Of a DNA stretch of 64,000 nt, positions 17,724 through 58,795 are shown one piece after another. The position numbers and the translations under genes were made by a program. The stretch is from Candidatus Babelota bacterium (GTDB lineage: Bacteria > Babelota > Babeliae > Babelales > RVW-14), in assembly GCA_013289515.1 (NCBI GenBank), contig JABCZU010000005.1:5424-69423 (forward strand), read 5' to 3'. The notes under the pieces were generated by a model. It had not been told where the DNA came from. It worked only from the letters and a program-made list of their open reading frames with translations, and searched no databases. Numbering within the stretch: position 1 is the first letter of the stretch; every line of letters begins with the position of its first letter.

Positions 17724-17902
17724 AAAAACCTCCAAGTTTTCTTTACTGACTATAAAAAAATTATTTCAACTATGAATAAGTTACCATGGGCATGGCACAA
17801 CGTCAAATATAAATTTAAATGCTAGGAAAAGCGTTAATATTGATGTTTTTTGTGCTAATTAAGCGCTTTCTGGGTAAAAAACAGCCTAAGGGGAAAATAG
17901 CA

Positions 17903-27479: not shown

Positions 27480-27571
27480 CTACCTTAAATTTGATTTATA
27501 GCGTTAAAATCGCTATAATCCCTGTTGCCTAAAGACATTTTTTGTATTTTTCAACACCAAGGATATCACCA

Positions 27572-36340: not shown

Positions 36341-37635
36341 TAATCTTCTACCAGTGACTTAAGCGCCTCTTTTAAAAGTTTTTTACGATCCTGTTTTTGT
36401 TGCATAGCCTTGGCATCTTCTCGCATGGTCTGGAACTGTTTGTTGACCTCTTCTCGTACTTTTATATCCATCTCTTTAAGACGACGCTCTTCCTGCTCAT
36501 TACTTTGATTAATGGCATCAAGATTTTTTTCCAGCGCCTCTAATTTTTGCGTAAGTGTCTTGCCAAGCTCTACTACCTTTTGCTCAGTGGTGGTTAATCT
36601 ATGTTCAAGGGCTTGCTGTTCTTGCAATAACTGCTTTTCGCTCGCTGATGCGGTCTCAGCCCGACCCTCTAATGCATCAATTTGTTTTGTCTGCGCCTTT
36701 ACTACATCCTTAACATCGTCAACTTTGTTGTTTGTAGCCTTCAACGTATCATCAAGCCGCTTATGCTGGCTAACCATCTTTTTCTGATGATCAGTGCGCT
36801 CATTAATCTTCTTTTCCAAGGTGGCAATTGCCTTTGTTTTTGTATCCAATGTATGCGTAAGTCTGTCAACTTTCTTTTCAAGTACAGCGGTCTGTTTTAC
36901 AGCTTTTTTAATATCGTCTCTTTTTTCCTGTTTTTTCAAAAACTCTTCCACGTGCAATAGGCGGCGTTCAACATTGGGTGTTGCTGGAACAGAAGGCGCT
37001 GCTACCTGGGCTGCCTCATCATGACTTTCTACCTGAGATACTTCAGGCCTATCTGCGCTCTCTGCGCTGGATTGCACCGGCCAGTTAATAACATCGTTGT
37101 ACAGCAGTAGGCCTATGGTAATAGTGGCAAGTATGGCAATGAGCACAACATACAGTATCCAGGCACGCGGTCGTATGCGTAGGTAAGCACCTCTCACAGC
37201 CCCCAGTCCCTGATACATCGATGATCCGGCCGTATGCCGAAAGCCTGAAAGCCAGTAGTGCGTTGTGCGGTATCTGGACACTATTTTTGACCAAGCCATT
37301 CGGCCAAATTCTGTTACGCCACGCACAATGCTTGACGATGCGTACACAATGCCCTGCCAAGAGCGCTGTGCCGCCCTAACTACAAATGCCATCGCCACGC
37401 CACACCATTGTGCCACGCTGGACCAAACCGTACGGCTAAAATTTGCTATGCTAGGCACAATACCTGACGATGCGTACATAATGCCCTGCCAAGAGCGCTG
37501 TGCCACCCTAAGCACAAATGCCCAGGCACCACGCATCTTGGAAAAGGCTACCGTAACAATGAATACTACCCAAGCCATTATTCGCCGTAAGGCATCCTGA
37601 CAAGAACTTACTATTTTTTTAAAAAAATTTTGCAT
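36340..37635 (-). CDS. Membrane-anchored coiled-coil protein
   Basis: Hydrophobic N-terminal half with a 44 aa tandem duplication. The C-terminal ~230 aa are rich in K/E/Q heptad-like sequence. ATG at 37635 is preferred over the TTG at 37686. Its stop overlaps the start of the next gene (TAATG). Confidence 0.6.
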   Translation of the reverse strand: MQNFFKKIVSSCQDALRRIMAWVVFIVTVAFSKMRGAWAFVLRVAQRSWQGIMYASSGIVPSIANFSRTVWSSVAQWCGVAMAFVVRAAQRSWQGIVYASSSIVRGVTEFGRMAWSKIVSRYRTTHYWLSGFRHTAGSSMYQGLGAVRGAYLRIRPRAWILYVVLIAILATITIGLLLYNDVINWPVQSSAESADRPEVSQVESHDEAAQVAAPSVPATPNVERRLLHVEEFLKKQEKRDDIKKAVKQTAVLEKKVDRLTHTLDTKTKAIATLEKKINERTDHQKKMVSQHKRLDDTLKATNNKVDDVKDVVKAQTKQIDALEGRAETASASEKQLLQEQQALEHRLTTTEQKVVELGKTLTQKLEALEKNLDAINQSNEQEERRLKEMDIKVREEVNKQFQTMREDAKAMQQKQDRKKLLKEALKSLVED

Positions 37636-37741
37636 AAAGCATCTCTCCCAGCTTGCACTACTCTTTAAATCTTTTTTAACGTACAAAATTTAGCCAATTA
37701 ATCGCAAGAATCGTCTAAATAATAATTATAAGATCAGGCTC

Positions 37742-40700
37742 CTAATTACGCATACCTTGTGGCGAAATCGTAAATATCCCAGCACTATTAGTCCCATAAA
37801 TCAACCCAGTCGCCGGATCATCCTTGGTTATTCGGTCATTCGCGGATAAGGAGGTAAACATGGCCGGCGTAAGGCTGGCTGGATTAGTAATTGGCTGCTT
37901 GGCCATGCTATCAAAGCTATTAAGCAGGGTGCGGCCCCCAGCACTATTAACAAACACCGTGCTGTAGGTTAATGCCGGTACTGTATTCAATAACAAGCGC
38001 ACTAGACCAAATACAGTGGTTTGTATAGGACGCAGGAACAGGAAGTTTTGAACATACCCAACCAGCGCGCTGCCAGCCAGACCTACCCGCCCATTACCAA
38101 TAAGCTCGGCGCCAATAGTACTAAAGTTAAATGGTGCATTAGCTCTATTGTTGCCAATACTCAGCAGCCCCTGTTGATTTAAGAAGAAGAAACCACCATC
38201 TTCAAATGATAATTTCTGTAAAAGGCTATTCTGAGGGACGCCTTTATTCGCGTTAATCTCCAAGACCCCTTGTTGACCAATAATGCCAACGCCCTGGTTA
38301 TGGAACTCTATATTAAAAGTTCCTTGGCTGAAGGATACAAATCCTTGTACTGGACTGGTTGGATTAGCCGGATTTTGGTTTACGGCATCAACTTTCAGCC
38401 GCGCATCTCTATCAACCACCATCGTTATTGCATCAGCTGAACTGCCTCCCAGAACAAGCTGTTGTCCTCCCTCGACAGAGATGAGCGCACCGGTATCAAT
38501 GAGCACCATTCCCTGTCCGGTGATAGAAGCGGTAGCCGGCGCTATTGCTGGTACTGTTGCGTTGTTGGTCAAACGAACTTTAGCTCTATCGGTCGCAGCT
38601 ACGGTGGCAGAGGCGTTGGTTCCGGCCCCGCCAAGCTTAATGGTAAGGCCATTTTGCAACCACACCGTACCATTACCCTGCCACTGCAAGAGCGCACCGG
38701 CTGGGATGGTTATTGGCGATGCCCCTGCTGTCATGATAACCATGGCTCCTTGGGCCTGCTTATCAAAGGTAATAAAGAGCTGGGCCCCTGGGTTAAAATT
38801 AAGTTGGCCATTGAAAGTGAACGTATTGGTAATCACAAGCTGATTATTTGTGCCATTAATATAAATAGTATCATTCGCCTTCAGCGTTGTTGGCGTTGAT
38901 CCTTGGTACACCGTGGCGTTGCCCATCAAATATAATTGCAACGTATTAACAGGATCAATATCAAAATTAGTAATTGACCCATTTGATACTTCAATGCCTC
39001 CACTTGCGTCATTAATTACCTGAGAGCCGGTCAGCACTCGTGTCTTAATATTTGTTGGCGGCAGGGGAAAATCTCTTGTTACCATATCATTATCTAGATA
39101 GTCACCACTACGCTTTTTACCCTGCTGCTTAGGTGGCCTGTGCTGTACACTGGCCTTTGGCTTATTAGCGGATGGCTTAGTAGCAAGCGGTTTATTTACA
39201 ATCGGCTTGCTCTGAGCATCTTTATTATATTCACGTTGTTTTAATTTTTGCTGAGCAAGGAAGGCGGCCTCCTGCCTTTTGCGCATAACTTCAAAGGCAT
39301 TGGTGGGGCGTTTTTTGAGCTGTTGCGGCTGTCTGATGACAAATGATGAATCAATAGCATTTGGAATATTGAGTGCAGTCAACGAAACACCGGCATTTAC
39401 TACCAAGTTGGCGGCCAACTGTTTTACCGGGAAGTTCTGAATCTGTATGTTTTGTCCACCAATCACCGCGTTAAGGTCAGTCACAAAGGCATTGGAGCCT
39501 AGATTGTTGACTGCTACCGCATAATTATCAAAAACAAGGCTGCTATACGCAATGCTAGACCCACCAACCAGCAGTAGATTATCACCAAAATTGACCGTTG
39601 GTGTACCTGAGACCGGCAACGTGCTTAGGTTAAGGGAGATATCTAACTGACTGTCAAATAATGCGCTATAGCCAATCAGCCCACTGAGTGTTAATTGATC
39701 ATTACGTAGCCGCAACGTATTATTTACAGCTTCAACAAAGAAGCTCATATCGGTATCAACATCAATATCTACAATGCTCTCACCGGTCAATGCCATGGCG
39801 CCCGTAAATATGCCGCCCGGCACAGCAACGCTTGCTACCGCAACACTTTGCAACCCTGTAAATTCTATATTTTCCAAGGCGATGGTACCCAGGCCAAGAT
39901 TGAAGGTTTTAATAATATTACCGGCCGAATCAACAATTGGCTGGATACTAACCCGCTTTTGAGCCCCTTCGCCAGTGAGGGTAAAGACGTTTGGCGTGTT
40001 TTGATCACCAAGTACTTGGATGGCATCCCCTGTTAATGAAATATCATCAATCAACTGAAAATCAACCCTAGGACCAATCAATAGTGAACTACCAGCTCCA
40101 AAGTCAAAGGTAAGCCCAGTAAGGCCGGCAAAGGTGATATTTTCTATCTCAAATATTACCCCCGGCTTTAAAAGAAGCTGCGGGTAAACAACATCACTAA
40201 ACATTATGGTCGCGCCCTGACCATTCAAGAGTAAATTATGATCAATTATAATCTGCTCACCTGGCTGCACCGTAAAACCATTGGTTATTGTCAATGTAGT
40301 TGATAGCGGAATCGTCCCAGTAAGCTCACCGCCACGCATAACTTGAATCGCACTGCTCAGTATTCTGAATCCATATAAAAACGCATTACTCGTATCACGT
40401 GCCAAAAATAAGAATGCCGCACTATTGATACGTGATAAAAATACTATTGCTTCGCTATTTACTCTATCACCGTACAACAATGCATTACTATTGGTGCGAT
40501 CACCAAATAACAGCGCATTACTGTTATTGCGGTCACCAAAAAGGAGTGCGTTACTGGTTATTCTGCTGTTATACGCAAAGGCTGCGCTTAAGACTCTATT
40601 TAGATACAGCAATGTATTACTGTTGTTCTTGGTTAGGAACAACTTGGCATTACTATCTGTCCTCTCATTAAACAGCAGCGCATTGCTATTTATGCGATCC

Positions 40701-43700
40701 CCAAATAACAGAGCGTTACTGTTGTTTTTAGTAAGAAATAACAATGTATTGCTCAATATCCTTAGGTTTTTATTTGTTGATTGGCTATTATTAATAATTG
40801 CAAACAACAAGGCATTACTGTTTATACGATTCAGGTACAGGAGTGCATTACTATTCACTCGATTATTGTAGGCTGCCGTCTCACTATTTATACGATCTCC
40901 AAAAAGAAGCGCATTGCTTGTTATCCTTGTTGCATACAATAATGCATTGCTATTGTATCGCACTAAGAAATTCAATGATTCACTGCTTATACGCGATAAA
41001 AATACTATTGCCTCACTATTTACTCTATCACCGTACAACAATGCATTACTATTGATGCGATCCCCAAATAAGAGAGTGTTGCTGTTTATACGGTCACCAA
41101 ACAATAACGCATTACTGGTGATTCGATTGTTGTATAGAATCGTGTTACTAAGCGTTCTGTTTACATAAAGAGCGTAACTACTAAAGGTACGATTTCCCGA
41201 TAGTACTGCGTTACTGGTCACCCTACTATTATATGCAAGGGCTGCACTTAATACTCTGTTCAGATACAATAACGTATTACTATTATTTTTGGTCAGGAAC
41301 AATTTGGCATTGCTGTCTGTTCTTTCGTTAAATAGCAACGCATTACTATTGATGCGATCACCAAATAACAAAGCATTGCTATTATTTTTAGTAAGAAATA
41401 ACAATGTATTGCTCAATATCCTTAGGTTTTTATTTGTTGATTGGCTATTATTAATAATTGCAAACAATAAGGCATTACTGTTTATACGATTCAGATACAG
41501 GAGTGCATTACTATTATTGGTCGTTAGGCGCAGCATCGCATTGCTGTTTATACGATCTCCAAACAAGAGAGCGTTACTGTTAATGCGATCACCAAATAAC
41601 AAGGCATTGCTTAACGTTCTATCAATGTACAGTGCGTAACTGCTACTTGTGCGATTGGCTGATAATATTGCATTGCTCGTGATTCTTGTTGCAAACAGTA
41701 ATGCATTACTGTTGTAACGTGCCAAGTATAATAATGATTCACTGGCTGTACGCGACAAGAACACTATCGCTTCACTATTGACTCTGTCACCGTACAATAA
41801 GGCGTTGCTGTTAATGCGATCACCAAAGAGCAGTGCATTGCTATTGACACGATTCAAGTACAACAAGGCATTACTGTTGTTGGTCGTTAGGCGCAGCATC
41901 GCATTGCTGTTTATACGATCTCCAAACAAGAGAGCGTTACTGTTAATGCGATCACCAAATAACAAGGCATTGCTCAAGGTTCGATCAATGTACAATGCAT
42001 AACTACTACTTGTACGATTAGCTGACAATATTGCATTGCTGGTCACCCTATTGTTGTACAAGATTGTATTGCTCAGCGTCCTATTCACATAGAGCTCAAA
42101 GCTACTGGTTGTTCTCTTTAAGGATAGCAGCGCATTGCTGGTGATTCTATTGTTATAGAGAATTGTCTCGCTATTTACTCTGTCGCCGTACAATAAGGCA
42201 TTACTGTTTATACGATTCAGGTACAGGAGTGCATTACTATTATTGGTCGTTAAGCGCAACATTGCGTTACTGTTGATACGATCTCCAAGCAAAAGCGCAT
42301 TGCTATTGATGCGATCACCGAACAACAAGGCATTGCTTAACGTTCTATCAATGTACAGTGCATAACTGCTACTTGTACGATTGGCTGATAATATTGCGTT
42401 GCTGGTCGTTCTATTGTTGAATAGTATCGTGTTACTCAATGTTCTGTTGCTGTAAAGCCCATAACTGCTAAATGTGCGATTGGCTGATAACAACGCCTCA
42501 CTAGTAATTCTATTGTTGTAGAGGATCGTGTTGCTAAGCGTTCGATTTACATACAAAGCATAACTACTGCTTGTCCTATTTGCCGATAAAATCGCATTGC
42601 TCAACGTCCTATTTACATATAACGCGTAGCTACTACTTGTGCGATTGGCCGATAGTAACGCTTCACTGGTTATACGATTATTGTACAGGATCGTCTCACT
42701 ATTTACTCTGTAACCGTACAATAATGCGTTGCTGTTTACACGGTTCAGGTACAGCAAGGCATTGCTGTTATTAGTGGTTAGGCGCAGCATGGCATTGCTA
42801 TTTATGCGATCTCCAAAGAGCAGCGCGTTACTGGTGATTCTTGTTGCATACAGTAATGCATTACTTGTAAAACGTGCTAAGGATGACAATGCCGCACTGC
42901 TGATACGCGATAAGAATACTATTGCTTCACTATTTACCCTGTCACCATACAAAAGCGCATTACTGTTTATTCTATCACCAAAAAGAAGTGCATTGCTTGT
43001 AATTCTATTATTGTATAGGATCGTATTACTCAATGTTCTATTAACGTACAGCTCGTAGCTACTCGTTGTTCGCTTTAAGGACAGTAAAGCATTGCTGGTC
43101 ACTCGGTTGTTGTAGAGGATCGTCTCACTGTTGACTCTATCGCCGAAGAGCAGCGCGTTGCTGTTTATGCGGTCACCAAAGAGCAGTGCATTGCTCAAGG
43201 TCCTGTCTACGTACAATGCATAACTGCTACTTGTTCGATTGGCTGATAATATTGCATTACTTGTAACACGGTTATTGTACAAGATCGTGTTACTCAGCGT
43301 CCTATTCACATAAAGCTCGTAGCTACTCGTTGTTCTCTTCAATGACAGTAAGGCGTTGCTGTTATACCGTGCCAGAAACAATAATGCTTCACTATCTATA
43401 CGAGATAGGAACACTATCGCCTCGCTGTTTACCCTATCTCCATACAGCAATGCATTGCTATTTACACGGTTCAAGTACAACAAGGCGTTACTGTTGTTGG
43501 TCGTTAGGCGCAACATCGCATTGCTGTTGATACGATCTCCAAACAAAAGCGCGTTACTGTTAATTCTATCACCAAATAACAAGGCATTGCTCAAGGTTCG
43601 ATCAATGTACAATGCATAACTGCTCGTTGTACGGTTTGCTGATAATATCGCATTGCTTGTAACACGGTTATTGTACAGGATCGTGTTGCTCAAGGTTCTA

Positions 43701-45367
43701 TTTACATACAACGCATAACTGCTACTTGTTCGATTAGCTGACAATATCGCGTTACTGGTAATTCTATTGTTATACAAAATTGTATTGCTAAGCGTCCTAT
43801 TAACATATAATGCATAGCTACTGCTTGTCCTATTGGCTGATAATATCGCTTCACTCGTTACACGATTATTATACAAGATCGTATTACTAAGCGTCCTATT
43901 CACGTACAATGCGTAGCTGCTAGATGTACGATTGGCAGATAACAGTGCCTCGCTGGTAACTCTATTGTTGTACAAGATCGTGTTACTCAACGTTCTATTC
44001 ACATATAACGCGTAGCTACTACTTGTACGATTGGCTGATAATATCGCATTACTGGTGGTTCTATTATTATAGAGGATCGTATTGCTATTCTCGCGATCAC
44101 CAAAGAGCAATGCCGCGCTGTTTATTCTATCACCAAATAAAAGTGCATTACTATTTATGCGATCGCCAAAGAGCAAGGCATTACTATTTGTTCTAGCTAA
44201 ATATAATAGTGTATTACTATTAGCTGTCACTGCCGCCGCATTAGTCATGGCATTAATCATGCCACCATTTAAATACGTTATAAATTTGGTACCCGCATCT
44301 GCTGCGGCGATACTGACGGTGGGCTGAATATTTTTAGCATCAGGATATTGGGTTGGATCATACCATAAGGTGACGCCATCAACCGTCAACGATGAGCTGT
44401 TGCTTACGGTCAGCACATGATTTTTTGTTACAATGGTTGATTCACCGTTGACATAAATACCACCTATAGTAAATGTGTATGAATTGGCCATTTCAATTTC
44501 AACACGCGTAAGACGCAATTGCGATGAAACACTTTCAAAAACAAAGCCCCCAAGTCCTAGTCCTTTAATCTTAATATCCTTCAAGTGCAGCGTAGTATTG
44601 GGTCTAATCCAAATAGAACCACGTTGCGTCAGATCAAGAATATTACCGTTGCCTAGGATGGTAGGCTGATTGCCAGATGTTAATGTACCAAAGGTCCACA
44701 TACCTGAGAGCTTGGTGTTACCCCGTAACTGCAAATCACTTGCATCGTTCCATAAAAGTGTATGCGTAAGTTTTAAAGAACCACTTGCCAGGGGAGCGCC
44801 AAAGGCAAACATCCTACCCGCTGTATCAACGGCACCCGATCCGGTAAGCGTTGCATCTGGCAACAGCCGAAGATCATCATCAAGAATAATGGTACCGCCA
44901 TTCATAACAATGGAACCGATATCGCCCGTAAGGGCCAAGGTAAGGCTACTGAGATTAGACGTAAGCGATAACGGACTGGTGAGCGTAAAATCTGGCGTGC
45001 CTTCTAGGCGGTTTCCGCCACGGATCACCGTAATTTGGTCTGAAAAGACACCATCAGATATACGAAAAATTTGATTAGTGTTAAGCACAATTGGCTGTGC
45101 CGACGTTGCGGCGTACGTGCCGGTAAAATAGGCGGGGTTGCCATTAATAGTCAGCATACCACCATTGAAAGCAATGGGCTGCTGTCCTGCCACTTTACCT
45201 GTTTGTGCAAGCGTCCCATTCCAGCTTGGAATGCTCGTATTAACGGTAAATTTTGCAGGCCCGACATTAATAGTAGAGTCTTGGCCAGAAAAATTAAGAC
45301 CAGCAAAACAGGTTATTTGAGCGAAGAGCACAATGATCAGATACATCAAACATGTATGATAACTCAT
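37742..45367 (-). CDS. Giant repeat protein 1 (2541 aa): signal peptide, conserved N-domain, about 118 copies of an 11-aa repeat, unique ~860 aa C-region
   Basis: Uninterrupted 7.6 kb ORF. The N-terminus is homologous to the other three giant proteins. Confidence 0.85.
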   Translation of the reverse strand: MSYHTCLMYLIIVLFAQITCFAGLNFSGQDSTINVGPAKFTVNTSIPSWNGTLAQTGKVAGQQPIAFNGGMLTINGNPAYFTGTYAATSAQPIVLNTNQIFRISDGVFSDQITVIRGGNRLEGTPDFTLTSPLSLTSNLSSLTLALTGDIGSIVMNGGTIILDDDLRLLPDATLTGSGAVDTAGRMFAFGAPLASGSLKLTHTLLWNDASDLQLRGNTKLSGMWTFGTLTSGNQPTILGNGNILDLTQRGSIWIRPNTTLHLKDIKIKGLGLGGFVFESVSSQLRLTRVEIEMANSYTFTIGGIYVNGESTIVTKNHVLTVSNSSSLTVDGVTLWYDPTQYPDAKNIQPTVSIAAADAGTKFITYLNGGMINAMTNAAAVTANSNTLLYLARTNSNALLFGDRINSNALLFGDRINSAALLFGDRENSNTILYNNRTTSNAILSANRTSSSYALYVNRTLSNTILYNNRVTSEALLSANRTSSSYALYVNRTLSNTILYNNRVTSEAILSANRTSSSYALYVNRTLSNTILYNNRITSNAILSANRTSSSYALYVNRTLSNTILYNNRVTSNAILSANRTTSSYALYIDRTLSNALLFGDRINSNALLFGDRINSNAMLRLTTNNSNALLYLNRVNSNALLYGDRVNSEAIVFLSRIDSEALLFLARYNSNALLSLKRTTSSYELYVNRTLSNTILYNNRVTSNAILSANRTSSSYALYVDRTLSNALLFGDRINSNALLFGDRVNSETILYNNRVTSNALLSLKRTTSSYELYVNRTLSNTILYNNRITSNALLFGDRINSNALLYGDRVNSEAIVFLSRISSAALSSLARFTSNALLYATRITSNALLFGDRINSNAMLRLTTNNSNALLYLNRVNSNALLYGYRVNSETILYNNRITSEALLSANRTSSSYALYVNRTLSNAILSANRTSSSYALYVNRTLSNTILYNNRITSEALLSANRTFSSYGLYSNRTLSNTILFNNRTTSNAILSANRTSSSYALYIDRTLSNALLFGDRINSNALLLGDRINSNAMLRLTTNNSNALLYLNRINSNALLYGDRVNSETILYNNRITSNALLSLKRTTSSFELYVNRTLSNTILYNNRVTSNAILSANRTSSSYALYIDRTLSNALLFGDRINSNALLFGDRINSNAMLRLTTNNSNALLYLNRVNSNALLFGDRINSNALLYGDRVNSEAIVFLSRTASESLLYLARYNSNALLFATRITSNAILSANRTSSSYALYIDRTLSNALLFGDRINSNALLFGDRINSNAMLRLTTNNSNALLYLNRINSNALLFAIINNSQSTNKNLRILSNTLLFLTKNNSNALLFGDRINSNALLFNERTDSNAKLFLTKNNSNTLLYLNRVLSAALAYNSRVTSNAVLSGNRTFSSYALYVNRTLSNTILYNNRITSNALLFGDRINSNTLLFGDRINSNALLYGDRVNSEAIVFLSRISSESLNFLVRYNSNALLYATRITSNALLFGDRINSETAAYNNRVNSNALLYLNRINSNALLFAIINNSQSTNKNLRILSNTLLFLTKNNSNALLFGDRINSNALLFNERTDSNAKLFLTKNNSNTLLYLNRVLSAAFAYNSRITSNALLFGDRNNSNALLFGDRTNSNALLYGDRVNSEAIVFLSRINSAAFLFLARDTSNAFLYGFRILSSAIQVMRGGELTGTIPLSTTLTITNGFTVQPGEQIIIDHNLLLNGQGATIMFSDVVYPQLLLKPGVIFEIENITFAGLTGLTFDFGAGSSLLIGPRVDFQLIDDISLTGDAIQVLGDQNTPNVFTLTGEGAQKRVSIQPIVDSAGNIIKTFNLGLGTIALENIEFTGLQSVAVASVAVPGGIFTGAMALTGESIVDIDVDTDMSFFVEAVNNTLRLRNDQLTLSGLIGYSALFDSQLDISLNLSTLPVSGTPTVNFGDNLLLVGGSSIAYSSLVFDNYAVAVNNLGSNAFVTDLNAVIGGQNIQIQNFPVKQLAANLVVNAGVSLTALNIPNAIDSSFVIRQPQQLKKRPTNAFEVMRKRQEAAFLAQQKLKQREYNKDAQSKPIVNKPLATKPSANKPKASVQHRPPKQQGKKRSGDYLDNDMVTRDFPLPPTNIKTRVLTGSQVINDASGGIEVSNGSITNFDIDPVNTLQLYLMGNATVYQGSTPTTLKANDTIYINGTNNQLVITNTFTFNGQLNFNPGAQLFITFDKQAQGAMVIMTAGASPITIPAGALLQWQGNGTVWLQNGLTIKLGGAGTNASATVAATDRAKVRLTNNATVPAIAPATASITGQGMVLIDTGALISVEGGQQLVLGGSSADAITMVVDRDARLKVDAVNQNPANPTSPVQGFVSFSQGTFNIEFHNQGVGIIGQQGVLEINANKGVPQNSLLQKLSFEDGGFFFLNQQGLLSIGNNRANAPFNFSTIGAELIGNGRVGLAGSALVGYVQNFLFLRPIQTTVFGLVRLLLNTVPALTYSTVFVNSAGGRTLLNSFDSMAKQPITNPASLTPAMFTSLSANDRITKDDPATGLIYGTNSAGIFTISPQGMRN
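40345..44225 (-). repeat. 33 nt (11 aa) coding tandem repeat array in giant protein 1
   Basis: Units such as ALLFGDRINSN, TILYNNRVTSN, AILSANRTSSSY and ALYVNRTLSN. Boundaries are approximate. Confidence 0.85.
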
Positions 45368-45447: not shown

Positions 45448-46500
45448 TCATTGATATTTTACCTGTCCATACATATAAACCGTCGCACCACCCTTAACTT
45501 TAGTGATTAAACTTGAATTCAAAAGTAATGCTTCGCCACTATTTCTGCCTGTGCTTGTCATCGTAACCTGGTCATCCAAGAGCAGCGTTCCTGTTTGTAA
45601 TTGTAGGCCGGTATTGGTAGAAAAAAGTGTACAGCCACTTAAATAAAGATTTGATGTTTGATCGGTCATGAAAAGTAAGTTGCTATTGGCTCTACGCGGG
45701 GCATAACTAAATGTTGTATCATGATCAAACATAAGGGTGCTCAGGGAATTAATAGTGCTGCCAACCCCCGTGGTATAGGCAAACGTTGTCGTCCCCGTAA
45801 ATACAACGTCCTTATCAAATAAAATGGATCCACGGGAGAAGGTATAATTAGCAGAACATCCGAAAACAACATTTCTCAGTACCAAAGAGCCGCTGTCCAT
45901 CAAACAGCGTATATTGGTTCTACCCACATTATTGATAGTTATATCTTCTAAAATAAGCTGCGAATTGGGCCTAACTATCAATGACGAACCTTCACTCAGG
46001 GTTAACTTTCTGCCGGGGCCACTAATTTTACAATTATCAGTAAATTGTAAAACCCCATAAATTCTTGCATCGGTATCAAAAAGTAAATTCGCTGCATCAA
46101 AATTAAATGAAAATGACATGACAAATTCTGTTGCTGTCGGACCAAATTCAAGTGTGTGAGTATTTGCCAAAATCGTGCCACTTCCTGTAAAACGTATTGG
46201 TTGGGCAAGCTTCAAATCTTCTAATAGTGATAATACGCCCCCATTTAAGTTTATGGCACTCGAGACTGGAAAAAAGGCGTTATACGTGCACGTGGTCGTA
46301 TTTGCTGCCAGAGTAAACCCATTCGCAAGGTATGCAAATCCTAAAATAGTATTTACTTGTCCATTAGGAAAGGCTGCTGTTGGATTGAGAGACACATTAT
46401 TATTAGCACCGACCGTTAACCCATGGGCTACAGGTGACAGCACATATGCTACCATTATTACTATAAAACCTATCTTGCTCATTGCCTGTGGTACCATCAA
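45448..46500 (-). CDS. Partner protein 1 (~350 aa, signal peptide), homologous to the C-terminal module of the giant proteins
   Basis: Motifs LANGFTLAANTTTCTY..LNGG.LSL, NIRCLMDSGS, NYTFSRGSILFD, FSYAPR and C-terminal YMYGQVKYQ. The start is probably the ATG at 46497. Confidence 0.8.
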   Translation of the reverse strand: MMVPQAMSKIGFIVIMVAYVLSPVAHGLTVGANNNVSLNPTAAFPNGQVNTILGFAYLANGFTLAANTTTCTYNAFFPVSSAINLNGGVLSLLEDLKLAQPIRFTGSGTILANTHTLEFGPTATEFVMSFSFNFDAANLLFDTDARIYGVLQFTDNCKISGPGRKLTLSEGSSLIVRPNSQLILEDITINNVGRTNIRCLMDSGSLVLRNVVFGCSANYTFSRGSILFDKDVVFTGTTTFAYTTGVGSTINSLSTLMFDHDTTFSYAPRRANSNLLFMTDQTSNLYLSGCTLFSTNTGLQLQTGTLLLDDQVTMTSTGRNSGEALLLNSSLITKVKGGATVYMYGQVKYQ

Positions 46501-46519: not shown

Positions 46520-49500
46520 CTAAAATAGTATCACGCTACCTGTCAGATTATTGCCATTCACTATGGTTGCTAAAATAGAAAGGTACATAAGTCCTGGACT
46601 CAAACTCAATGGCTGATTAAGCACCAGCGTGGTTGTTGGGTTTAATGTAAGACCAGAATATTGATTATCCATAAGAAATGAGGTGCTCTTTACATTTTGA
46701 TACACCAAATAACCGGTATCAAGTCTTAAGAGTGCACCAGAACTGATCTGGACGGCCTGATCATCACTGCTGATATTATCCCCGATAATAATACCCGAAC
46801 CGGCTGAGCCACCTTCAGCAACCAAGTCAGAGATACCATCAATAAGCAGCGACCCGTTTGTTAACTGCATGCCATACTTCGTTGCATGGAGTGTGGCACT
46901 ATCCAGTTGCAAGAGCGATGTGTTATCAGCAAAGGTAAGCAATTGCTGCCTATTCCCCTGCGGGTCATAACTAAAGGTAAATGACGGCTCTAGGAGCAGA
47001 GTAGCATTTGACTGAATAGTAGAAGCAAGCGAAGTATTAAACGCAAAGGTATATGACCCAACCATATCTAAGAAGCGTGTAACTTGGAATGATCCGCTGC
47101 TAAAGGTAAAGTTGTTGGACTGTACCCATGTCACACCATCAAAAATAATAACTGATGAGTTATCCATACATGAAAGCTTAGTGTCACCAGCCCCACGTAT
47201 ATTGGCATTTTTTAAATGAAGCTTGGCATCGTGACCAACAAGGACATTTGCATTATTCCCTAGGGTAATGGTGCATCCCTGTGCGTCCAACAGACAGGTT
47301 CCTGTAAACTTTAGCGTACTATTAATAGTAATGTCGTTAGAAAACACCAAATCTGCATTGTTAATAGTCAGCGCAGATGCGGTTGAGAAGCCGGTAAAGG
47401 TTGCCGAAAAATTAATACTATGATTATCCCCAATAATCAGGCCGCCAGTCTGAAAATATGCGCCGCTATTCAGCGTAAGATCAGAGGCCAGATACAATTG
47501 CCCACCGTGTAGTGCTATAGCGCCTGCAATAGGATAGACCGATTGAAAGGTCACTGTCGTAGTATTAGTTTGTAGGCTAAAGCCATTGGGTAGGTAGTTG
47601 AATGTATTGATTACGTTGCTTGTGCCGCCAATAAAACTATTGTTCGATGCTGTAACTGCCGTAGCCAAAAATTCATTACTGGTGATACGCTCAAAATACA
47701 ATAAAGCATTGCTCAGCGTTCTGTTTACGTACAGTGCATAACTGCTATTAGCACGATTTGCTGATAACAATGCATTGCTTGTATAACGTGCTAAGGATGA
47801 CAATGCCGCACTGCTTATGCGCGATAAGAATACTATTGCTTCACTATTCACTCTGTCGCCAAATAACAGTGCATTGCTATTTATTCGTGTTGCAAATAAC
47901 AATGCGTTACTGGTGTAACGTGCTAATGCACCCAACGCTTCACTATTTGTGCGCGATAAAAATATTATTGCCTCACTATTCACCCTGTCACCAAACAACA
48001 GTGCGTTGCTGTTAGTGCGACTCAAATACAACAGTGCATTACTATTGTTGGTGGTCAGCCTCAACATAGCGTTGCTGTTGATACGGTCACCAAAGAGCAA
48101 GGCGTTACTATTATTTTTTGTCAGGAATAACAAGGCGTTGCTTGTCGTTCTTCCTGCGCTTCCTCCATTGAGGATGGCATTGCTCAACACGCGCATATCA
48201 TAGGCCAACGTCTCACTAATGATCCTGTTATTGTACAGAATCGTGTTACTGAGGGTTCTATTGCTATAAAGCCCATAGCTACTCGTTGTCCTCTGCAAGG
48301 AGAGCAGCGCATTACTGTTGTAGCGGGCTAAGAATGCTAGTGACTCACTATTTGTACGTGAAAGAAAATTGATTGCCTCGCTGTTTACTCTGTCACCGTA
48401 CAATAATGCATTGCTATTTATGCGATTCAGATACAATAAGGCGTTGCTATTATTCGTCGTTAGGCGCAGCATTGCATTGCTATTGATTCTGTCGCCAAGC
48501 AAAAGAGCATTACTATTTATGCGGTCACCGAACAATAAGGCGTTGCTCAAGGTTCGATCAACATACAGTTCATAACTGCTTGTCGTCCTTTTCAGAGACA
48601 GGAGTGCATTACTTGTAACACGGTTGTTGTACAGGATCGTGTTACTCAGCGTCCTGTTGACATACAATTCATAGCTGCTCGTTGTTCTCTTCAGGGACAA
48701 TAAAGCATTGCTGGTTGTTCTGTTGTTGTACAGGATTGTCTCACTGTTGACCCTATCACCGAAGAGCAGGGCATTACTATTGTTTCTTGTTAGGAATAAT
48801 AGTGCGTTGCTGTTATTGGTCGTCAGCCTCAACATAGCGTTGCTGTTGATACGGTCACCAAAGAGCAAGGCGTTACTATTATTTTTTGTCAGGAATAACA
48901 AGGCGTTGCTTGTCACTCTTCCAAAACTTCCGCCATTGAGAGTGGCGCTACTTAATATACGGAAATCATAAGCAAGCGTGTTGCTTAATATCCTGTTGCT
49001 ATACAAGCCATAACTGCTAAATGTACGATTGGCTGACAACAATGCTTCACTTGTTATCCTGTTATTGTACAGAATCGTATTGCTCAGGGTTCTGTTTACG
49101 TAGAGCTCAAAGCTACTGGTTGTTCTTTTCAGGGATAGCAGTGCATTACTGTTATAGCGGGCCAAGAATGCTAGTGACTCACTATTTGTACGTGAAAGAA
49201 AATTGATTGCCTCGCTGTTTACTCTGTCACCGTACAATAATGCATTGCTATTGATGCGATCACCGAACAATAGTGCGTTACTGTTGTTTCTTGTTAGAAA
49301 TAATAGTGCATTGCTGTTATTGGTTGTGAGTCTCAGCATTGCGTTACTGTTAATTCTGTCACCAAACAAGAGTGCGTTGCTGTTTATACGATCGCCAAAT
49401 AACAAGGCATTGCTCAAGGTCCTGTCAACATAGAGCTCATAACTACTTGTCGTCCTCTTTAAGGACAACAGTGCGTTACTTGTAACACGGTTGTTGTACA

Positions 49501-52500
49501 AGATCGTGTTGCTGAGCGTTCTATTAACGTACAGTCCGTAGCTACTCGCTGTTCTCTTTAAAGATAGTAAGGCGTTGCTAATAACTCGATTGTTATACAG
49601 GATTGTCTCACTATTTACGCGATCGCCAAAGAGTAAGGCATTGCTATTATTTCTTGTCAGGAATAAGAGCGCATTACTGTTATTGGTTGTTAAACGCAGC
49701 ATGGCATTGCTATTGATACGATCACCAAACAATAAAGCGTTACTATTTATGCGATTCAGGAACAACAAGGCATTACTATTTGTTCTGCCAGCACTACCGC
49801 CATTGAGGATGGCACTACTCAAAATGCGGAAATCATAGGCCAGCGTCTCGCTGATTATTCTGTTATTGTACAGGATCGTGTTACTCAGCGTCCTGTTCAC
49901 ATATAACTCAAAGCTGCTGGTTGTTCTCTTCAAAGATAGGAGTGCATTACTGTTGTAGCGGGCCAAGAATGCTAACGACTCACTAGCTGTACGTGACAAA
50001 AAGTTGATTGCCTCACTATTTACGCGATCGCCATACAGAAGTGCGTTACTATTTATGCGACTCAGGAACAAGAGTGCATTACTGTTATTGGTCGTTAGGC
50101 GCAGCATTGCATTGCTGTTGATACGATCACCGAATAAGAGCGCGTTACTGTTATTTTTAGTCAGGAACAACAAGGCATTGCTATTTGTTCTTCCAGCACT
50201 ACCGCCATTGAGGATGGCGTTGCTTAACACACGCACATCATAGGCCAACGTCTCGCTGATTATTCTGTTATTGTATAGGATTGTGTTACTTAGTGTTCTA
50301 TTAACGTAGAGTCCGTAGCTACTCGTTGTTCGCTTTAATGACAACAGCGCATTGCTTGTGATTCTATTATTATAGGCGACCGTTTCACTGCCTACGCGAT
50401 CGCCAAAGAGCAGTGCGTTGCTATTGACGCGGTTCAGATACAGAAGTGCATTACTGTTATTCGTGCTGAGACGCAACAATGTATTACTATTTACGCGCGC
50501 ACCAAATAATAATGCGTTACTGTTGATACGATCACCAAACAACAAGGCATTGCTTAAGGTTCTGTCTATATATAACGCATAGCTGCTACTTGTACGATTG
50601 GCTGATAACAGCGCATTACTGGTCACACGATTGTTGTACAGGACCGTATTACTCAATGTTCTATTAACATAAAGCTCGTAGCTGCTCGTTGTGCGCTTCA
50701 ATGATAGCAGCGCATTGCTTGTTATTCTATTGTTGTAGAGTATCGTGTTACTCAGCGTCCTATTAACATACAAGGCATAGCTACTTGCCGTGCGCTTTAA
50801 TGACAGAATGGCATTACTGTTATTGGTACTGAGTCGCAGCATCGCGTTACTGTTGATACGATCGCCAAACAAGAGAGCATTGCTGTTTATACGATCACCA
50901 AATAACAAGGCGTTGCTCAAGGTCCTATCCACATACAGTGCGTAACTGCTACTTGTACGATTGGCCGATAATATGGCGTTGCTAGTAACACGGTTATTGT
51001 ACAGAATCGTATTGCTCAGCGTCCTGTTGACGTACAGCTCATAGCTACTCGTCGTCCTCTTCAGAGACAGTAATGCATTACTGGTTGTTCTGTTGTTGTA
51101 CAAAATCGTGTTACTCAGGGTTCTATTCACATACAACGCGTAACTACTACTTGTACGATTCGCCGATAACAATGCGTTACTATTTGTGCGATTGCCAAAT
51201 AGCGAAGCGTTACTCAGGGTTCTATTCACATACAACGCATAACTGCTACTCGTACGATTGGCTGATAACAATGCATTACTGGTGGTTCTATTGTTATACA
51301 GAATCGTGTTACTATTCTCTCTAGCACCAAAGAGCAATGCCGCGCTGTTTATTCTATCGCCAAAGAGCAAGGCATTACTATTTGTTCTAGCTAAATATAA
51401 CAGTGTATTACTATTAGCCGTCACTGCCGCCGCATTGGTCATGGCGTTAATCATGCCGCCATTTAAATACGTTATAAATTTGGTACCAACATCTGCTGCT
51501 GCGATACTGACGGTGGGCTGAATATTTTTAGCATCAGCATATTGGGTTGGATCATACCATAATGTCACCCCATCAACCGTCAGGGATGAGCTGTTACTCA
51601 TCGTCAGTATATGGTTTTTTGTTACAATAACCGATTCGCCGTTAACATAAATACCACCAGCAGTAACGGTGTATGAATTAGCCATCTCAATTTCAACACG
51701 ACTGAGACGTAATTGAGAACTAACACTTTCAAAAACAAAGCCGCCTCGTCCAAGCCCTTTTATTTTTACATCAACAAGACGAAGCGTTGTATTAGCTTTA
51801 ATAAAAATTGAGCTACCGCGCGAAAGATCGAGCGTATGCCCGTGCCCATCAATAGTAGGCATACAACCGGCCGTTAACGTCCCAAAGCGCCACATGCCAT
51901 ACAATACTGTATTACCGTCTAATTGTAATTGACTGGCATCGTTCCATAGTAGTGTATGTGTCAGCCGTAATGCACTACTTGCAAGGCCAGCACCTAAGAT
52001 AAATTTTCTTCCTGTTGTGTTTACCGTACCTGACCCGGTAAGCGTAGCATCTGGTAACAGCCGAAGATCATTATCAAGGATGATCGTTCCGCCGTTCATT
52101 GTAATAGGCCCAAGGTCACCATTAAGCGCAAGCGTAACACTGCTGAGATTATGCGTTAAGACCAGTGGTGTAGTAATGGATGAATAATCTGCGGTACCCT
52201 CAAGGCGATTGCCACCACGAATGATGGCAATTTGATCTGAAAACAGCCCATCATCAGGACGAAATAGTTGATTAGTGTTGAGGACAATTGGCTGCGCTGA
52301 TGTTGGTGCATACGTGCCGGTAAAGTATGCTGGATTACCATTGATTGCGAGCGTCCCACCATTAAAGGTGATTGGTTGCGTCCCAACAACCGCTCCCGTC
52401 TGGGCAAGCATCCCATTCCAGCTTGGAATGGCGGTATTGACAATAAATTTTGCAGGACCAACACTAATCATAGAACTTGGCCCAGAGAAATTTAATCCCG

Positions 52501-52567
52501 CTGGTAAACACGGTGTATCAGCAAGGAGCATGACAATAAAATATATCCAGCACGCCGCTAAACTCAT
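46520..52567 (-). CDS. Giant repeat protein 2 (2015 aa)
   Basis: Uninterrupted ORF with signal peptide, conserved N-domain, repeat array and a partner-like C-module ending in ..GSVILF. Confidence 0.85.
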   Translation of the reverse strand: MSLAACWIYFIVMLLADTPCLPAGLNFSGPSSMISVGPAKFIVNTAIPSWNGMLAQTGAVVGTQPITFNGGTLAINGNPAYFTGTYAPTSAQPIVLNTNQLFRPDDGLFSDQIAIIRGGNRLEGTADYSSITTPLVLTHNLSSVTLALNGDLGPITMNGGTIILDNDLRLLPDATLTGSGTVNTTGRKFILGAGLASSALRLTHTLLWNDASQLQLDGNTVLYGMWRFGTLTAGCMPTIDGHGHTLDLSRGSSIFIKANTTLRLVDVKIKGLGRGGFVFESVSSQLRLSRVEIEMANSYTVTAGGIYVNGESVIVTKNHILTMSNSSSLTVDGVTLWYDPTQYADAKNIQPTVSIAAADVGTKFITYLNGGMINAMTNAAAVTANSNTLLYLARTNSNALLFGDRINSAALLFGARENSNTILYNNRTTSNALLSANRTSSSYALYVNRTLSNASLFGNRTNSNALLSANRTSSSYALYVNRTLSNTILYNNRTTSNALLSLKRTTSSYELYVNRTLSNTILYNNRVTSNAILSANRTSSSYALYVDRTLSNALLFGDRINSNALLFGDRINSNAMLRLSTNNSNAILSLKRTASSYALYVNRTLSNTILYNNRITSNALLSLKRTTSSYELYVNRTLSNTVLYNNRVTSNALLSANRTSSSYALYIDRTLSNALLFGDRINSNALLFGARVNSNTLLRLSTNNSNALLYLNRVNSNALLFGDRVGSETVAYNNRITSNALLSLKRTTSSYGLYVNRTLSNTILYNNRIISETLAYDVRVLSNAILNGGSAGRTNSNALLFLTKNNSNALLFGDRINSNAMLRLTTNNSNALLFLSRINSNALLYGDRVNSEAINFLSRTASESLAFLARYNSNALLSLKRTTSSFELYVNRTLSNTILYNNRIISETLAYDFRILSSAILNGGSAGRTNSNALLFLNRINSNALLFGDRINSNAMLRLTTNNSNALLFLTRNNSNALLFGDRVNSETILYNNRVISNALLSLKRTASSYGLYVNRTLSNTILYNNRVTSNALLSLKRTTSSYELYVDRTLSNALLFGDRINSNALLFGDRINSNAMLRLTTNNSNALLFLTRNNSNALLFGDRINSNALLYGDRVNSEAINFLSRTNSESLAFLARYNSNALLSLKRTTSSFELYVNRTLSNTILYNNRITSEALLSANRTFSSYGLYSNRILSNTLAYDFRILSSATLNGGSFGRVTSNALLFLTKNNSNALLFGDRINSNAMLRLTTNNSNALLFLTRNNSNALLFGDRVNSETILYNNRTTSNALLSLKRTTSSYELYVNRTLSNTILYNNRVTSNALLSLKRTTSSYELYVDRTLSNALLFGDRINSNALLLGDRINSNAMLRLTTNNSNALLYLNRINSNALLYGDRVNSEAINFLSRTNSESLAFLARYNSNALLSLQRTTSSYGLYSNRTLSNTILYNNRIISETLAYDMRVLSNAILNGGSAGRTTSNALLFLTKNNSNALLFGDRINSNAMLRLTTNNSNALLYLSRTNSNALLFGDRVNSEAIIFLSRTNSEALGALARYTSNALLFATRINSNALLFGDRVNSEAIVFLSRISSAALSSLARYTSNALLSANRANSSYALYVNRTLSNALLYFERITSNEFLATAVTASNNSFIGGTSNVINTFNYLPNGFSLQTNTTTVTFQSVYPIAGAIALHGGQLYLASDLTLNSGAYFQTGGLIIGDNHSINFSATFTGFSTASALTINNADLVFSNDITINSTLKFTGTCLLDAQGCTITLGNNANVLVGHDAKLHLKNANIRGAGDTKLSCMDNSSVIIFDGVTWVQSNNFTFSSGSFQVTRFLDMVGSYTFAFNTSLASTIQSNATLLLEPSFTFSYDPQGNRQQLLTFADNTSLLQLDSATLHATKYGMQLTNGSLLIDGISDLVAEGGSAGSGIIIGDNISSDDQAVQISSGALLRLDTGYLVYQNVKSTSFLMDNQYSGLTLNPTTTLVLNQPLSLSPGLMYLSILATIVNGNNLTGSVILF
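47680..51418 (-). repeat. 33 nt coding repeat array in giant protein 2 (about 113 units)
   Basis: Same repeat family. Boundaries are approximate. Confidence 0.85.
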
Positions 52568-52578
52568 CTATTCCCTTT

Positions 52579-53643
52579 TTATTGGTATTTTATTCGCCCA
52601 TACATATAAACCGATGCACCGCCCATGACCTTAGTAGTCAAGCTGGAATTTAGAAGTAATGCTTCACCACTATTTCTACTTGTGCTTGTAACCGTGACCT
52701 GATCATCTAACAATAGTGTCCCTGTTTGCAACTGTAATCCTGTATACGTAGAAAAAAGTGTGCAGCCACTCAAATAAAGGCATGATGTTTGGTCTGTCAT
52801 GGACAACAAGCTACCATTTGCCCTGCGTGGGGCGTAGCTAAGCGTGGTATCGTGATCGAACATTAGGGTGCTGAGTGAATTAATGGTACTGCCCACGCCG
52901 GTTGTGTACGCAAATGTTGTAGTACCGGTAAATATAACATCCTGATCAAACAAAATTGATCCACGGGAAAAGGTGTAATTAGCAGAGGATTCCAGGATAA
53001 CATTTCGTAGCACTATGGAACCGTTATCCATCAAGCACCGTAGATTGGTTCTGCCCACATTCCTAATCGTAATATCTTCTATAATAAGCTGCGAATTAGG
53101 CCTGACGACTAAAGCCGAACCATTGTTAAGCGTCAATACTTTGCCATGCTTTCCACAAATTTTACAACCCTGTGCAAATTGTAACGTCGAATAAAGCCTT
53201 GTGTTGGTATCAAATCGTAGCATGGTGGAATCAAAATTGAACGTGGCTGTAAGTGCAAAGTCGGTAGTCGTTTCACCGATAGCAAATAAACTTTGGTTGC
53301 CTAAAATAGTACCACCAGTAGGAAAGGCCACCGGTTGGAAGCAAATGAAATCTTCAGCCAATGATAACGTCCCTCCATTAAGACTCACCGTACTCGAGAC
53401 CGGAAAAAAGCCGGCAAAGGTGCATGTGGTAGTGCTGCTCGCAAAGTTAAAACCATTGAGCATCACACCAAAACCAAGAATATTATTACCACCACCAGCA
53501 AGGTTGGCCGTAGGTTGAAGCGATACGTTAGCATTTGATCCTATATTTGGTGCTTTAACACCACCAATCATAATACTCAGCACCATGAAGAGACAACAAA
53601 TATAACGCGTAATAAAAATCATTAACAAAATCCCCACAAACAT
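52579..53643 (-). CDS. Partner protein 2 (354 aa)
   Basis: Paralog of the 45448..46500 and 57727..58788 genes. Ends YMYGRIKYQ. Confidence 0.8.
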   Translation of the reverse strand: MFVGILLMIFITRYICCLFMVLSIMIGGVKAPNIGSNANVSLQPTANLAGGGNNILGFGVMLNGFNFASSTTTCTFAGFFPVSSTVSLNGGTLSLAEDFICFQPVAFPTGGTILGNQSLFAIGETTTDFALTATFNFDSTMLRFDTNTRLYSTLQFAQGCKICGKHGKVLTLNNGSALVVRPNSQLIIEDITIRNVGRTNLRCLMDNGSIVLRNVILESSANYTFSRGSILFDQDVIFTGTTTFAYTTGVGSTINSLSTLMFDHDTTLSYAPRRANGSLLSMTDQTSCLYLSGCTLFSTYTGLQLQTGTLLLDDQVTVTSTSRNSGEALLLNSSLTTKVMGGASVYMYGRIKYQ

Positions 53644-53650
53644 GCTGTCA

Positions 53651-57712: not shown

Positions 57713-57726
57713 CTATTCCCTTTGTT

Positions 57727-58788: not shown

Positions 58789-58795
58789 ATTATGC

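Follow-up and report, generated by a model that had tools for sequence, protein, structure and literature searches.

Right-handed beta-helices recur among described surface proteins, including the passengers of autotransporters (Ag43, TibA, AIDA-I) and the chlamydial Pmp proteins. In obligate intracellular bacteria, multi-paralogue clusters of Pmp proteins or autotransporters are thought to form homo- and hetero-oligomers. The Dependentiae (TM6), a phylum of obligate parasites that live on protists, are widespread but almost uncultured. Papers on TM6 and Babela mention ankyrin, WD40, and other eukaryote-like repeats, and type II is the only secretion system that was detected in Babela (PMC4776705, PMC4378268). 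Here we analyzed a stretch of 64,000 nucleotides from a Candidatus Babelota bacterium (GenBank assembly GCA_013289515.1, contig JABCZU010000005.1, positions 5,424 to 69,423 of the forward strand), referred to below as the window. It contains a block of genes for four giant proteins (G1 to G4) that alternate with small partner proteins (P1 to P3, and an incomplete "partner 4", P4), followed by genes for a membrane-anchored coiled-coil protein and for a 553-aa orphan protein predicted to reside in the outer membrane. Partners and giants share a module of ~330 residues, modeled as a right-handed beta-helix, which belongs to a large unannotated family with a conserved gene cluster in other Dependentiae. 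This structural and evolutionary part (homology, fold class, family, subtypes, synteny, and amplification) is very likely correct. The full explanation, in which the family and the cluster provide exported, co-operating surface subunits, is plausible but tentative.

Comparison with described systems

The locus shares with autotransporter passengers and chlamydial Pmp proteins the right-handed beta-helix and the organization in multi-paralogue clusters, although here both fold and export are predicted and the structural match is weak. Unlike type Va autotransporters, the module proteins have no C-terminal beta-barrel translocator: no Autotransporter match at E≤1 was found in the partners, G3, or G4, and the C-terminal extension of the giants comprises only ~86-100 aa. 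Unlike chlamydial Pmp, each protein contains just 0-1 GGA[ILV] motif, and there is no match to the Pfam family Chlam_PMP. The locus further differs from both groups in its unit, a module of ~330 aa as opposed to coils of 19 residues, and in encoding a separate, orphan predicted outer-membrane protein.

As in two-partner secretion (TPS; TpsA/TpsB, such as FHA/FhaC and HMW1), a giant beta-helix protein with a conserved N-terminal beta-helix domain and a predicted outer-membrane protein of ~550 aa appear together in one operon. However, G3 and G4 have no Haemagg_act or TPS match, and neither the 553-aa protein nor its homologues carry a POTRA, ShlB, or Omp85 signature, even at E≤1-10. The outer-membrane gene also lies at the far 3' end, after the coiled-coil gene, and several paralogous module proteins are present instead of one exoprotein. 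No NCBIfam or Pfam match to the type IX Por_Secre_tail/C-terminal domain (CTD) sorting domain was found in G4, P1, or the two-module protein P0077.

Phage tailspikes and tail fibers with their chaperones resemble the locus in the beta-helix fold predicted here, in a small gene directly downstream of a large fibrous-protein gene, and in a repeat stalk that is not modeled as a monomer. In contrast to these, the genes described here have a chromosomal, non-phage context (gyrA, pgsA, pgpA, and ankyrin genes) without tail or baseplate genes, and the small protein is homologous to the large one and has its own predicted export signal. The likeness to chaperone-usher pili consists in an operon of paralogous subunits of varied size and role together with an outer-membrane protein, and in the idea of a heteropolymer. 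Yet the predicted fold is a beta-helix rather than an incomplete Ig domain, usher and chaperone homologues are lacking, and no sign of donor-strand complementation was found. In its workings the system comes closest to beta-helix adhesin families such as autotransporter passengers (including Ag43 and TibA), chlamydial Pmp proteins, and TpsA exoproteins. None of the signatures sought is present (translocator barrel, Pmp motifs, TPS, Omp85/POTRA, type IX CTD). The system can best be seen as a variation, limited to this phylum, on the theme of exported beta-helix fibers or adhesins. Unusual are the use of a ~330-aa module singly, in tandem, or as the display of a WD40 propeller, the stalks of 11-residue repeats, and the orphan outer-membrane partner.

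Homology of partners and giants

The three partner open reading frames (ORFs) lie on the minus strand exactly where the first-pass annotation had placed them, and its central claim, that partners 1-3 are homologous to the C-terminal modules of giants 2-4, was borne out at 30-34% identity over ~285 residues. In BLASTP with composition-adjusted statistics, P1 aligned with residues 1644-1928 of G2 over 285 gapless columns (34% identity, E 5e-46) and with two separate modules of G4 (E 6e-46 and 3e-36). Profile searches with a hidden Markov model (HMM) built from P1-P3 matched G2, G3, and, at two sites, G4 at E 1e-39 to 2e-51 (Table 1), in agreement with the two tandem modules that had been noticed in G4. 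All six motif pairs quoted by the annotation sit in aligned columns. Its authoring model had also named a purely compositional, N/S/T-rich similarity as the possible flaw, and the N+S+T content is 29-35% in all these proteins. Smith-Waterman comparisons of partners with C-modules gave z = 33-47 against 200 shuffles of the target, whereas the control, partners against the N/S/T-rich 11-residue repeats, gave z = 0.1. Compositional bias is thus excluded. G1 was rightly reported to lack the C-module (HMM not significant, shuffle z = 3.6). A weaker, partial module in the N-terminal domain (N-domain) of every giant, G1 included (E 6e-10 to 1e-17), had been overlooked.

The first-pass annotation further saw in each partner a separately encoded copy of the terminal domain of the giant beside it. 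The partners are indeed free-standing homologues of the giant C-module, but in the module tree they are not copies of the adjoining giant's end. Asked whether each partner is closest to its adjacent giant, the phylogeny answers no: P1-P3 cluster together and with single-module orthologues, and the giant C-modules cluster with modules A and B of the two-module protein and not with the partners. Identities follow the same pattern. P1-P3 are 70-77% identical to each other (P2 is 70% identical to P1 and 77% to P3) and 39-55% identical to orthologues of their type in other Dependentiae, as opposed to only 30-34% with any giant C-module. The partner-giant homology is therefore ancient, and the partners belong to a separate, old subtype kept across the phylum. 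The sequence relationship between partner and giant is in itself ordinary paralogy.

Each partner consists of a signal-like N-terminal segment and exactly one complete module. P1-P3 match the module profile over its full length, including Cys157/Cys199 and the motifs NYTFSxGS, FSYxP, and TG(L/M)QL. They end in 'GY.VYxN', the same end point as in many multi-module relatives. The giants and the two-module proteins carry an extra C-terminal extension ending in ...GSVxxF, which is absent from the partners. The AlphaFold2 (AF2) model of P1, built from a 15-sequence alignment, has a predicted local distance difference test score (pLDDT) of 86.9 and a predicted template modeling score (pTM) of 0.82; a helix at residues 4-21 is followed by a continuous all-beta solenoid. 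The pLDDT falls to 74 at about residues 121-130, the loop that accepts a WD40 insertion in relatives. The best Foldseek matches among PDB and viral models were all right-handed beta-helices (TibA, Ag43, SRRP, tailspikes, and pectate lyases), although none was significant (E≥0.001, template modeling [TM] score 0.2-0.35); TibA (E 0.01) and Ag43 (E 0.017) are weak structural neighbors of the P1 model. P1 (18.0 bits, E 0.0024) and P3 (13.4 bits) matched the Pfam family Beta_helix (PF13229) below its gathering score of 25.9, and P2, P4, and the giants gave no match. Above threshold, no Pfam or NCBIfam family was found for the partners, the giants, the two-module protein, the coiled-coil protein, or the 553-aa protein. 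A PDB sequence search with the module profile yielded no relative, with the pectate-lyase-like Jun a 1 reaching E 0.13. From the model and these matches, the module is predicted to be a right-handed beta-helix of ~330 residues. Invariant in all module types are Gly, Thr, Ser, Phe, Leu, and Asn residues and two Cys 42 residues apart (C157 and C199 in P1). The complete, self-contained fold of the AF2 model weighs mildly against strand complementation, one of the three roles considered in the first-pass annotation beside that of a cap or nucleator and that of a decoy or anchor.

A large family with four module types

A profile search of 1.84 billion representative proteins retrieved 2,468 module relatives at E≤1e-3, of which 1,399 scored at ≤1e-30. 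Named relatives are all 'hypothetical protein' of Candidatus Dependentiae, TM6, or Babeliales, with the exception of one metagenome-assembled genome labeled Epsilonproteobacteria, and a literature search found no paper describing the module family. It is a large unannotated family that is restricted to the Dependentiae (TM6) as far as names exist. The analysis provides a name and boundaries for this very large group, which comprises no fewer than 2,468 clusters at a 50% identity level. Among the top 150 relatives, proteins with 2, 3, 4, 5, 6, or 8 tandem modules at a pitch of ~415 aa prevail.

The module tree resolves four types. P-type modules occur in single-module proteins and in ~690-aa proteins, where a WD40 propeller of ~335 aa interrupts the module at profile position ~119. 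A-type and B-type are the first and second module, respectively, of ~830-aa two-module proteins, and N-type is the partial module in the N-domain of the giants. Five forms of family members can be distinguished: single P-type proteins, WD40-inserted P-type proteins, proteins with 2-8 tandem modules, giants whose N-domain precedes 11-residue repeats and C-terminal modules, and giants of the G1 type, in which the C-region differs. Precomputed Pfam matches to WD40/beta-propeller families lie between the module halves of ~690-aa P-type relatives in five loci of other Dependentiae (L002, L004, L006, L007, and L008). Many Dependentiae 'WD40 proteins' thus appear to be beta-helix modules displaying a propeller.

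P4 probably belongs to this split subtype. The reported alignment of its C-half with the module is real (E 3e-75), but the ORF is of a different kind than P1-P3 and open to the window end. That the alignment is confined to the C-half would be explained by a propeller insertion in P4 and by an N-terminus outside the window. With the C-parts of the ~690-aa WD40-split proteins in L002, L004, L006, and L007, P4 shares 42-46% identity. Only the tail of the WD40 insertion falls within the window ('FSHDGNHLALGD'), and a Pfam scan of that short fragment gave no match. Outside the window, on the same source contig, locus L003 contains an 824-aa protein made up of nothing but a signal, the two modules A and B, and the C-terminal extension, with a fifth P-type partner (P0004, 340 aa) 12 nt downstream; both are known only from a short Logan contig without overlap with the window. 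The 824-aa protein is the closest relative of the C-terminal half of G4.

Gene layout and conservation of the cluster

The block lies entirely on the minus strand, so its genes follow one another with decreasing coordinates (Table 1). Gaps between a giant and the following partner are 7, 7, and 19 nt, and those between a partner and the next giant 14, 11, and 80 nt. The start of the 553-aa gene overlaps the stop of the coiled-coil gene by 1 nt, and pgsA- and pgpA-like genes lie downstream. A pattern scan against shuffled sequences found no intergenic terminators above chance within the block, and promoter and terminator scans returned counts at or below the shuffle expectation. The whole block looks like one operon, and the 7-nt gaps suggest translational coupling.

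Table 1. Features of the module gene block and its surroundings. Positions refer to the window, except for rows that name another locus.
Feature	Position	Strand	Remarks
P4 ('partner 4')	63105 to beyond 64000	-	ORF, frame open to base 64000 (window end); probable C-part of ~690-aa WD40-split P-type module; HMM positions 110-351 only
G4 (giant 4)	58796-62974	-	1392 aa
G4 N-domain partial module	61952-62575	-	aa 134-341; HMM E 4e-15
G4 11-residue repeat array	61205-61843	-	lag-11/33 autocorrelation
G4 module A	60323-61243	-	aa 578-884; HMM E 4e-48; 69% identical to module A of L003 824-aa protein
G4 module B	59105-59965	-	aa 1004-1290; HMM E 1e-39; 61% identical to module B of L003 824-aa protein
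P3 (partner 3)	57727-58788	-	353 aa; single P-type module; start 7 nt past G4 stop
G3 (giant 3)	53651-57712	-	1353 aa
G3 N-domain partial module	56603-57250	-	HMM E 6e-10
G3 11-residue repeat array	54863-56581	-	lag-11/33 autocorrelation
G3 C-terminal module, A/B hybrid	53987-54856	-	aa 953-1242; HMM E 2e-47
P2 (partner 2)	52579-53643	-	354 aa; single P-type module; start 7 nt past G3 stop
G2 (giant 2)	46520-52567	-	2015 aa
G2 N-domain partial module	51605-52105	-	HMM E 1e-17
G2 11-residue repeat array	47648-51436	-	lag-11/33 autocorrelation
G2 C-terminal module, A/B hybrid	46781-47644	-	aa 1642-1929; HMM E 2e-51
G2 C-terminal extension	46523-46780	-	~86 aa, ends ...GSVILF; BLASTP to C-termini of two-module proteins in L003, L004, L007; motif GK.IIGSV...
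P1 (partner 1)	45448-46500	-	350 aa; hydrophobic signal-like N-terminal helix and one complete P-type module
G1 (giant 1)	37742-45367	-	2541 aa
G1 N-domain partial module	44441-44956	-	HMM E 8e-14
G1 11-residue repeat array	40298-44236	-	lag-11/33 autocorrelation
G1 C-region, not the module	37745-40297	-	aa 1691-2541; no significant module match
Membrane-anchored coiled-coil protein	36340-37686	-	448 aa; downstream of G1
Orphan predicted outer-membrane beta-barrel protein	34679-36340	-	553 aa; last cluster gene
553-aa family member, L001	9302-10897
553-aa family member, L009	3208-4812
553-aa family member, L011	2328-4034
553-aa family member, L017	3-1418
Two-module protein and fifth partner (P0004), L003	1927-5436		824 aa and 340 aa; outside window
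Heparinase-II/III-like (HepC) protein	12567-14618	+	683 aa; weak match, E 1.7e-10
Calcineurin-like phosphoesterase domain protein	14733-17735	-	1000 aa
Ankyrin-repeat gene	17903-18787
DUF1016/YhcG PD-(D/E)XK nuclease	20123-21289
AAA_14/DUF4143 ATPase	21706-22899
Ankyrin-repeat gene	27542-28798
HEPN protein	29140-29637
Ankyrin-repeat gene	29768-30955
DUF1016/YhcG PD-(D/E)XK nuclease	31047-32240
Ankyrin-repeat gene	32307-33419

About 20 loci from other Dependentiae genomes and metagenomes were compared. A recurring order emerged (loci L001-L021), with one or more two- or three-module proteins followed by WD40-split modules (usually two), a single P-type protein, and a giant; on contigs of sufficient length, the next genes encode a small or coiled-coil protein and a member of the 553-aa family. 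The order of subtypes is kept between lineages whose proteins share only 40-58% identity. The single-module gene is elsewhere usually located upstream of the giant, or WD40-split genes lie between them.

Including the protein in the window, the 553-aa family has five members. In L001, L009, and L011 the homologues lie downstream of a giant of the G1 type, and in L017 beside module genes. All five end in an aromatic residue after alternating hydrophobic residues (e.g., FGIDVSFNAEF), and from this classical C-terminal motif the 553-aa protein is predicted to be an outer-membrane beta-barrel. Neither this protein nor its four homologues have a Pfam match at E≤10, an NCBIfam match, or a sequence relative in PDB. 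The 448-aa protein encoded before it contains an N-terminal segment that is duplicated within itself ('...VAQRSWQGI(M/V)YASS...' occurs twice), one predicted transmembrane helix, and a coiled coil of ~220 aa. It gave only weak coiled-coil-type matches (SMC, Crescentin, and similar families), and a homologue is found at the same position in L009.

Domain structure of the giants

The N-domain is 41-58% identical between G1 and the giants of other Dependentiae. In the AF2 model, residues 30-345 of G4 form a beta-helix with a pLDDT mostly above 90, for which Foldseek retrieved generic beta-helices only. It is followed in all four giants by an array of 11-residue repeats with the consensus L-[YF]-x-[ND]-R-[TIV]-x-S-[NS]-[AT]-[LI], where Ser is present at 99%. 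The array of G1 comprises 119 units in unbroken register and shows a 33-residue super-period. About half of the units contain an N-R-T sequon, and equivalent repeats of other Dependentiae often have Cys-Cys pairs ('LLYCCRTNSNAL'). As a monomer (within residues 1-620 of G4) the repeats were modeled at a pLDDT of only ~27, and nothing similar was found in a PDB sequence search. An alpha-helical hendecad coiled coil, a beta-solenoid with 33 residues per coil, and a trimeric beta-helix are candidate structures for this putative stalk.

The C-termini of the giants tell different histories. In the C-modules of G2 and G3, the first ~160 residues match the A-type at 40-52% and the B-type at 12-42%, and the last ~130 residues match the B-type at 57-91%. 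These A/B hybrids are the signature of a recombinational deletion inside an A+B tandem like that of G4, and the C-termini of the extra giants were taken from the two-module paralogue. The C-region of G1 is instead homologous to that of a 3,100-aa giant in L007 (29% identity over 988 aa, E 8e-96) and also to those in L009, L011, and L001. Since this region is common to G1 and the L007 giant, G1 is the ancestral-type giant.

Tandem amplification and selection

On the minus strand, positions 52350-54352 and 57495-59497 are 74% identical over 2,011 bp (blastn). The duplicated unit spans three genes, namely the 3'-end of a giant, a whole partner, and the 5'-end of the next giant, and its limits are the 11-residue repeat arrays. 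The alternation of giants and partners thus arose by tandem amplification, apparently through unequal recombination inside these arrays. The locus clearly exemplifies how recombination at repeat arrays can reshuffle and multiply the ends of genes irrespective of where one gene stops and the next begins; the limits of the duplicated unit are not those of the genes.

Among P1-P3, the synonymous divergence (dS) is saturated at 1.4-2.0, and the ratio of non-synonymous to synonymous divergence (dN/dS) is 0.13-0.18 overall, with 0.04-0.10 in the C-terminal and 0.15-0.22 in the N-terminal half. The partners are thus old, maintained, and functional genes under strong purifying selection, in which the C-half is highly constrained and the N-half evolves faster. 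The saturated dS and a DNA identity of only ~74% between the cassettes rule out recent gene conversion as the source of partner similarity. At the DNA level, the repeats recur with a period of 99 nt or multiples of it. They are just 68-80% identical, old, and not slippage-prone, so that hypervariable contingency repeats can be ruled out as well.

Proposed function and alternative explanations

The preferred explanation is that the cluster encodes co-operating surface subunits. All cluster proteins would be exported by Sec, as suggested by their hydrophobic N-termini (15-residue average Kyte-Doolittle hydropathy 1.7-2.7) and by the invariant Cys pair, which is suggestive of a disulfide. The exported products may then serve together as subunits of a single fibrous structure, on the surface or outside the cell, with which the intracellular parasite probably attaches to its host. 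In this structure, the single-module partner would be a dedicated small subunit bound to the giant, most plausibly via its conserved C-terminal half, with the variable N-half and the WD40 insertions as a source of binding diversity and the orphan outer-membrane protein serving export or anchorage. The main support for co-operation of the cluster products is that gene order is kept across deep divergence and that the genes are tightly spaced. Co-assembly of these products is possible, though we hold it with considerable reserve. The most specific version is that the cluster represents a phylum-wide envelope apparatus, that is a heteromeric beta-helix fiber of paralogous modules with a new outer-membrane component for export or anchorage, used for attachment to or entry into protist hosts and containing the single-module partner as an obligatory small subunit (adaptor, tip, or base). 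In this full detail it is doubtful. Even so, a conserved operon that includes an orphan predicted outer-membrane protein is a concrete candidate for host-interaction surface machinery in the Dependentiae.

Several observations weigh against co-operating subunits. A contact between partner and giant is proposed mainly from gene order and spacing, and the strict alternation in the window follows trivially from tandem duplication of a unit that spans three genes, so that on its own it is no sign of partnership. There is no obvious match between the partner tree, (P1,(P2,P3)), and the trees of the giant N-domains or C-modules. In some loci (L008, L016, and L018), WD40-split genes intervene between the single-module gene and the giant, or the fragment shows no giant. 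Signal peptides were judged by hydropathy only, and the N-termini of the giants are without the usual positive n-region. The 11-residue stalk was modeled at the low pLDDT given above, and profile and sequence searches detected no relation of the 553-aa protein to known secretion or usher families. Some Dependentiae proteins combine an N-domain, short 11-residue repeats, and a terminal partial module that often scores best as P-type. As the score differences are modest, such a fusion ("Rosetta stone") is a weak hint, not evidence, for a partner-giant link.

The chief alternative is a repertoire of independent paralogues, in which the members of one expanded family act separately as exported adhesins or effectors, similar to the surface-protein repertoires of other obligate intracellular bacteria, and adjacency stems from tandem duplication without any specific partner-giant interaction. 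The family is huge and highly paralogous, one amplified duplication unit accounts for the alternation, and the partners are not closest to their adjacent giants. Moreover, the AF2 model shows a complete stand-alone fold, and the faster divergence of the N-half of the partners is what one would expect of diversifying binding surfaces. Duplication alone, however, would not preserve the order of subtypes at 40-58% protein identity. The suggested translational coupling across the 7-nt gaps and the very strong constraint on the P-type C-half in all copies also disagree with independent action. We regard this scenario as unlikely, if worth serious attention.

The position of P1-P3, which start 7-19 nt past the stop codon of a giant, could alternatively point to a helper in assembly. 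A partner would then be a transient folding nucleator, cap, or chaperone for the modules or the 11-residue stalk of the giant translated just before. The ends of beta-helices are natural templating surfaces, and the failure of the stalk to fold as a monomer in AF2 fits a need for oligomerization or help. This 'downstream helper' layout is peculiar to the amplified locus, however, given that single-module genes elsewhere are usually located upstream of the giant or separated from it. The partner also has its own predicted export signal and the same full module as its structural paralogues, and tail-fiber chaperones are not known to be homologous to their fibers. Finally, the AF2 model of P1 is complete and reveals no incomplete fold that would require complementation. 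A role as assembly helper is thus improbable.

An enzymatic function, in which the module would be a carbohydrate-active beta-helix and would attack polysaccharide of the host or of the bacterium itself as a lyase, glycosidase, or depolymerase, is very improbable. The weak Foldseek matches do include pectate lyases, polygalacturonases, alginate lyases, and tailspike depolymerases, and Jun a 1 appeared in the profile search, but all these structural matches are non-significant. No invariant Asp/Glu/His/Lys/Arg constellation exists across the module subtypes in the alignment, and the conserved Asp belongs to D-x-[ST] turn motifs that occur once per coil, which suggests a structural role. There is also no CAZy-type Pfam domain at threshold. 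Lastly, despite the shared richness in N, S, and T, it is next to impossible that the similarity is a mere artifact of composition or that the partner ORFs are decaying fragments, as the gapless alignment of 285 columns (composition-adjusted E ~1e-46), the shuffle scores, intact ORFs with low dN/dS, and orthologues in many genomes refute both.

Surroundings of the cluster

The flanks of the block contain four ankyrin-repeat genes, two paralogous DUF1016/YhcG PD-(D/E)XK nucleases, a HEPN protein, and an AAA_14/DUF4143 ATPase, and gyrA is also encoded in the window. Such a mix of ankyrin, DUF1016, HEPN, and AAA_14 genes is typical of the accessory gene content of Dependentiae. Further away, the window encodes a 683-aa protein with a weak heparinase-II/III-like match and a 1000-aa protein with a calcineurin-like phosphoesterase domain, both of which have no obvious link to the cluster.

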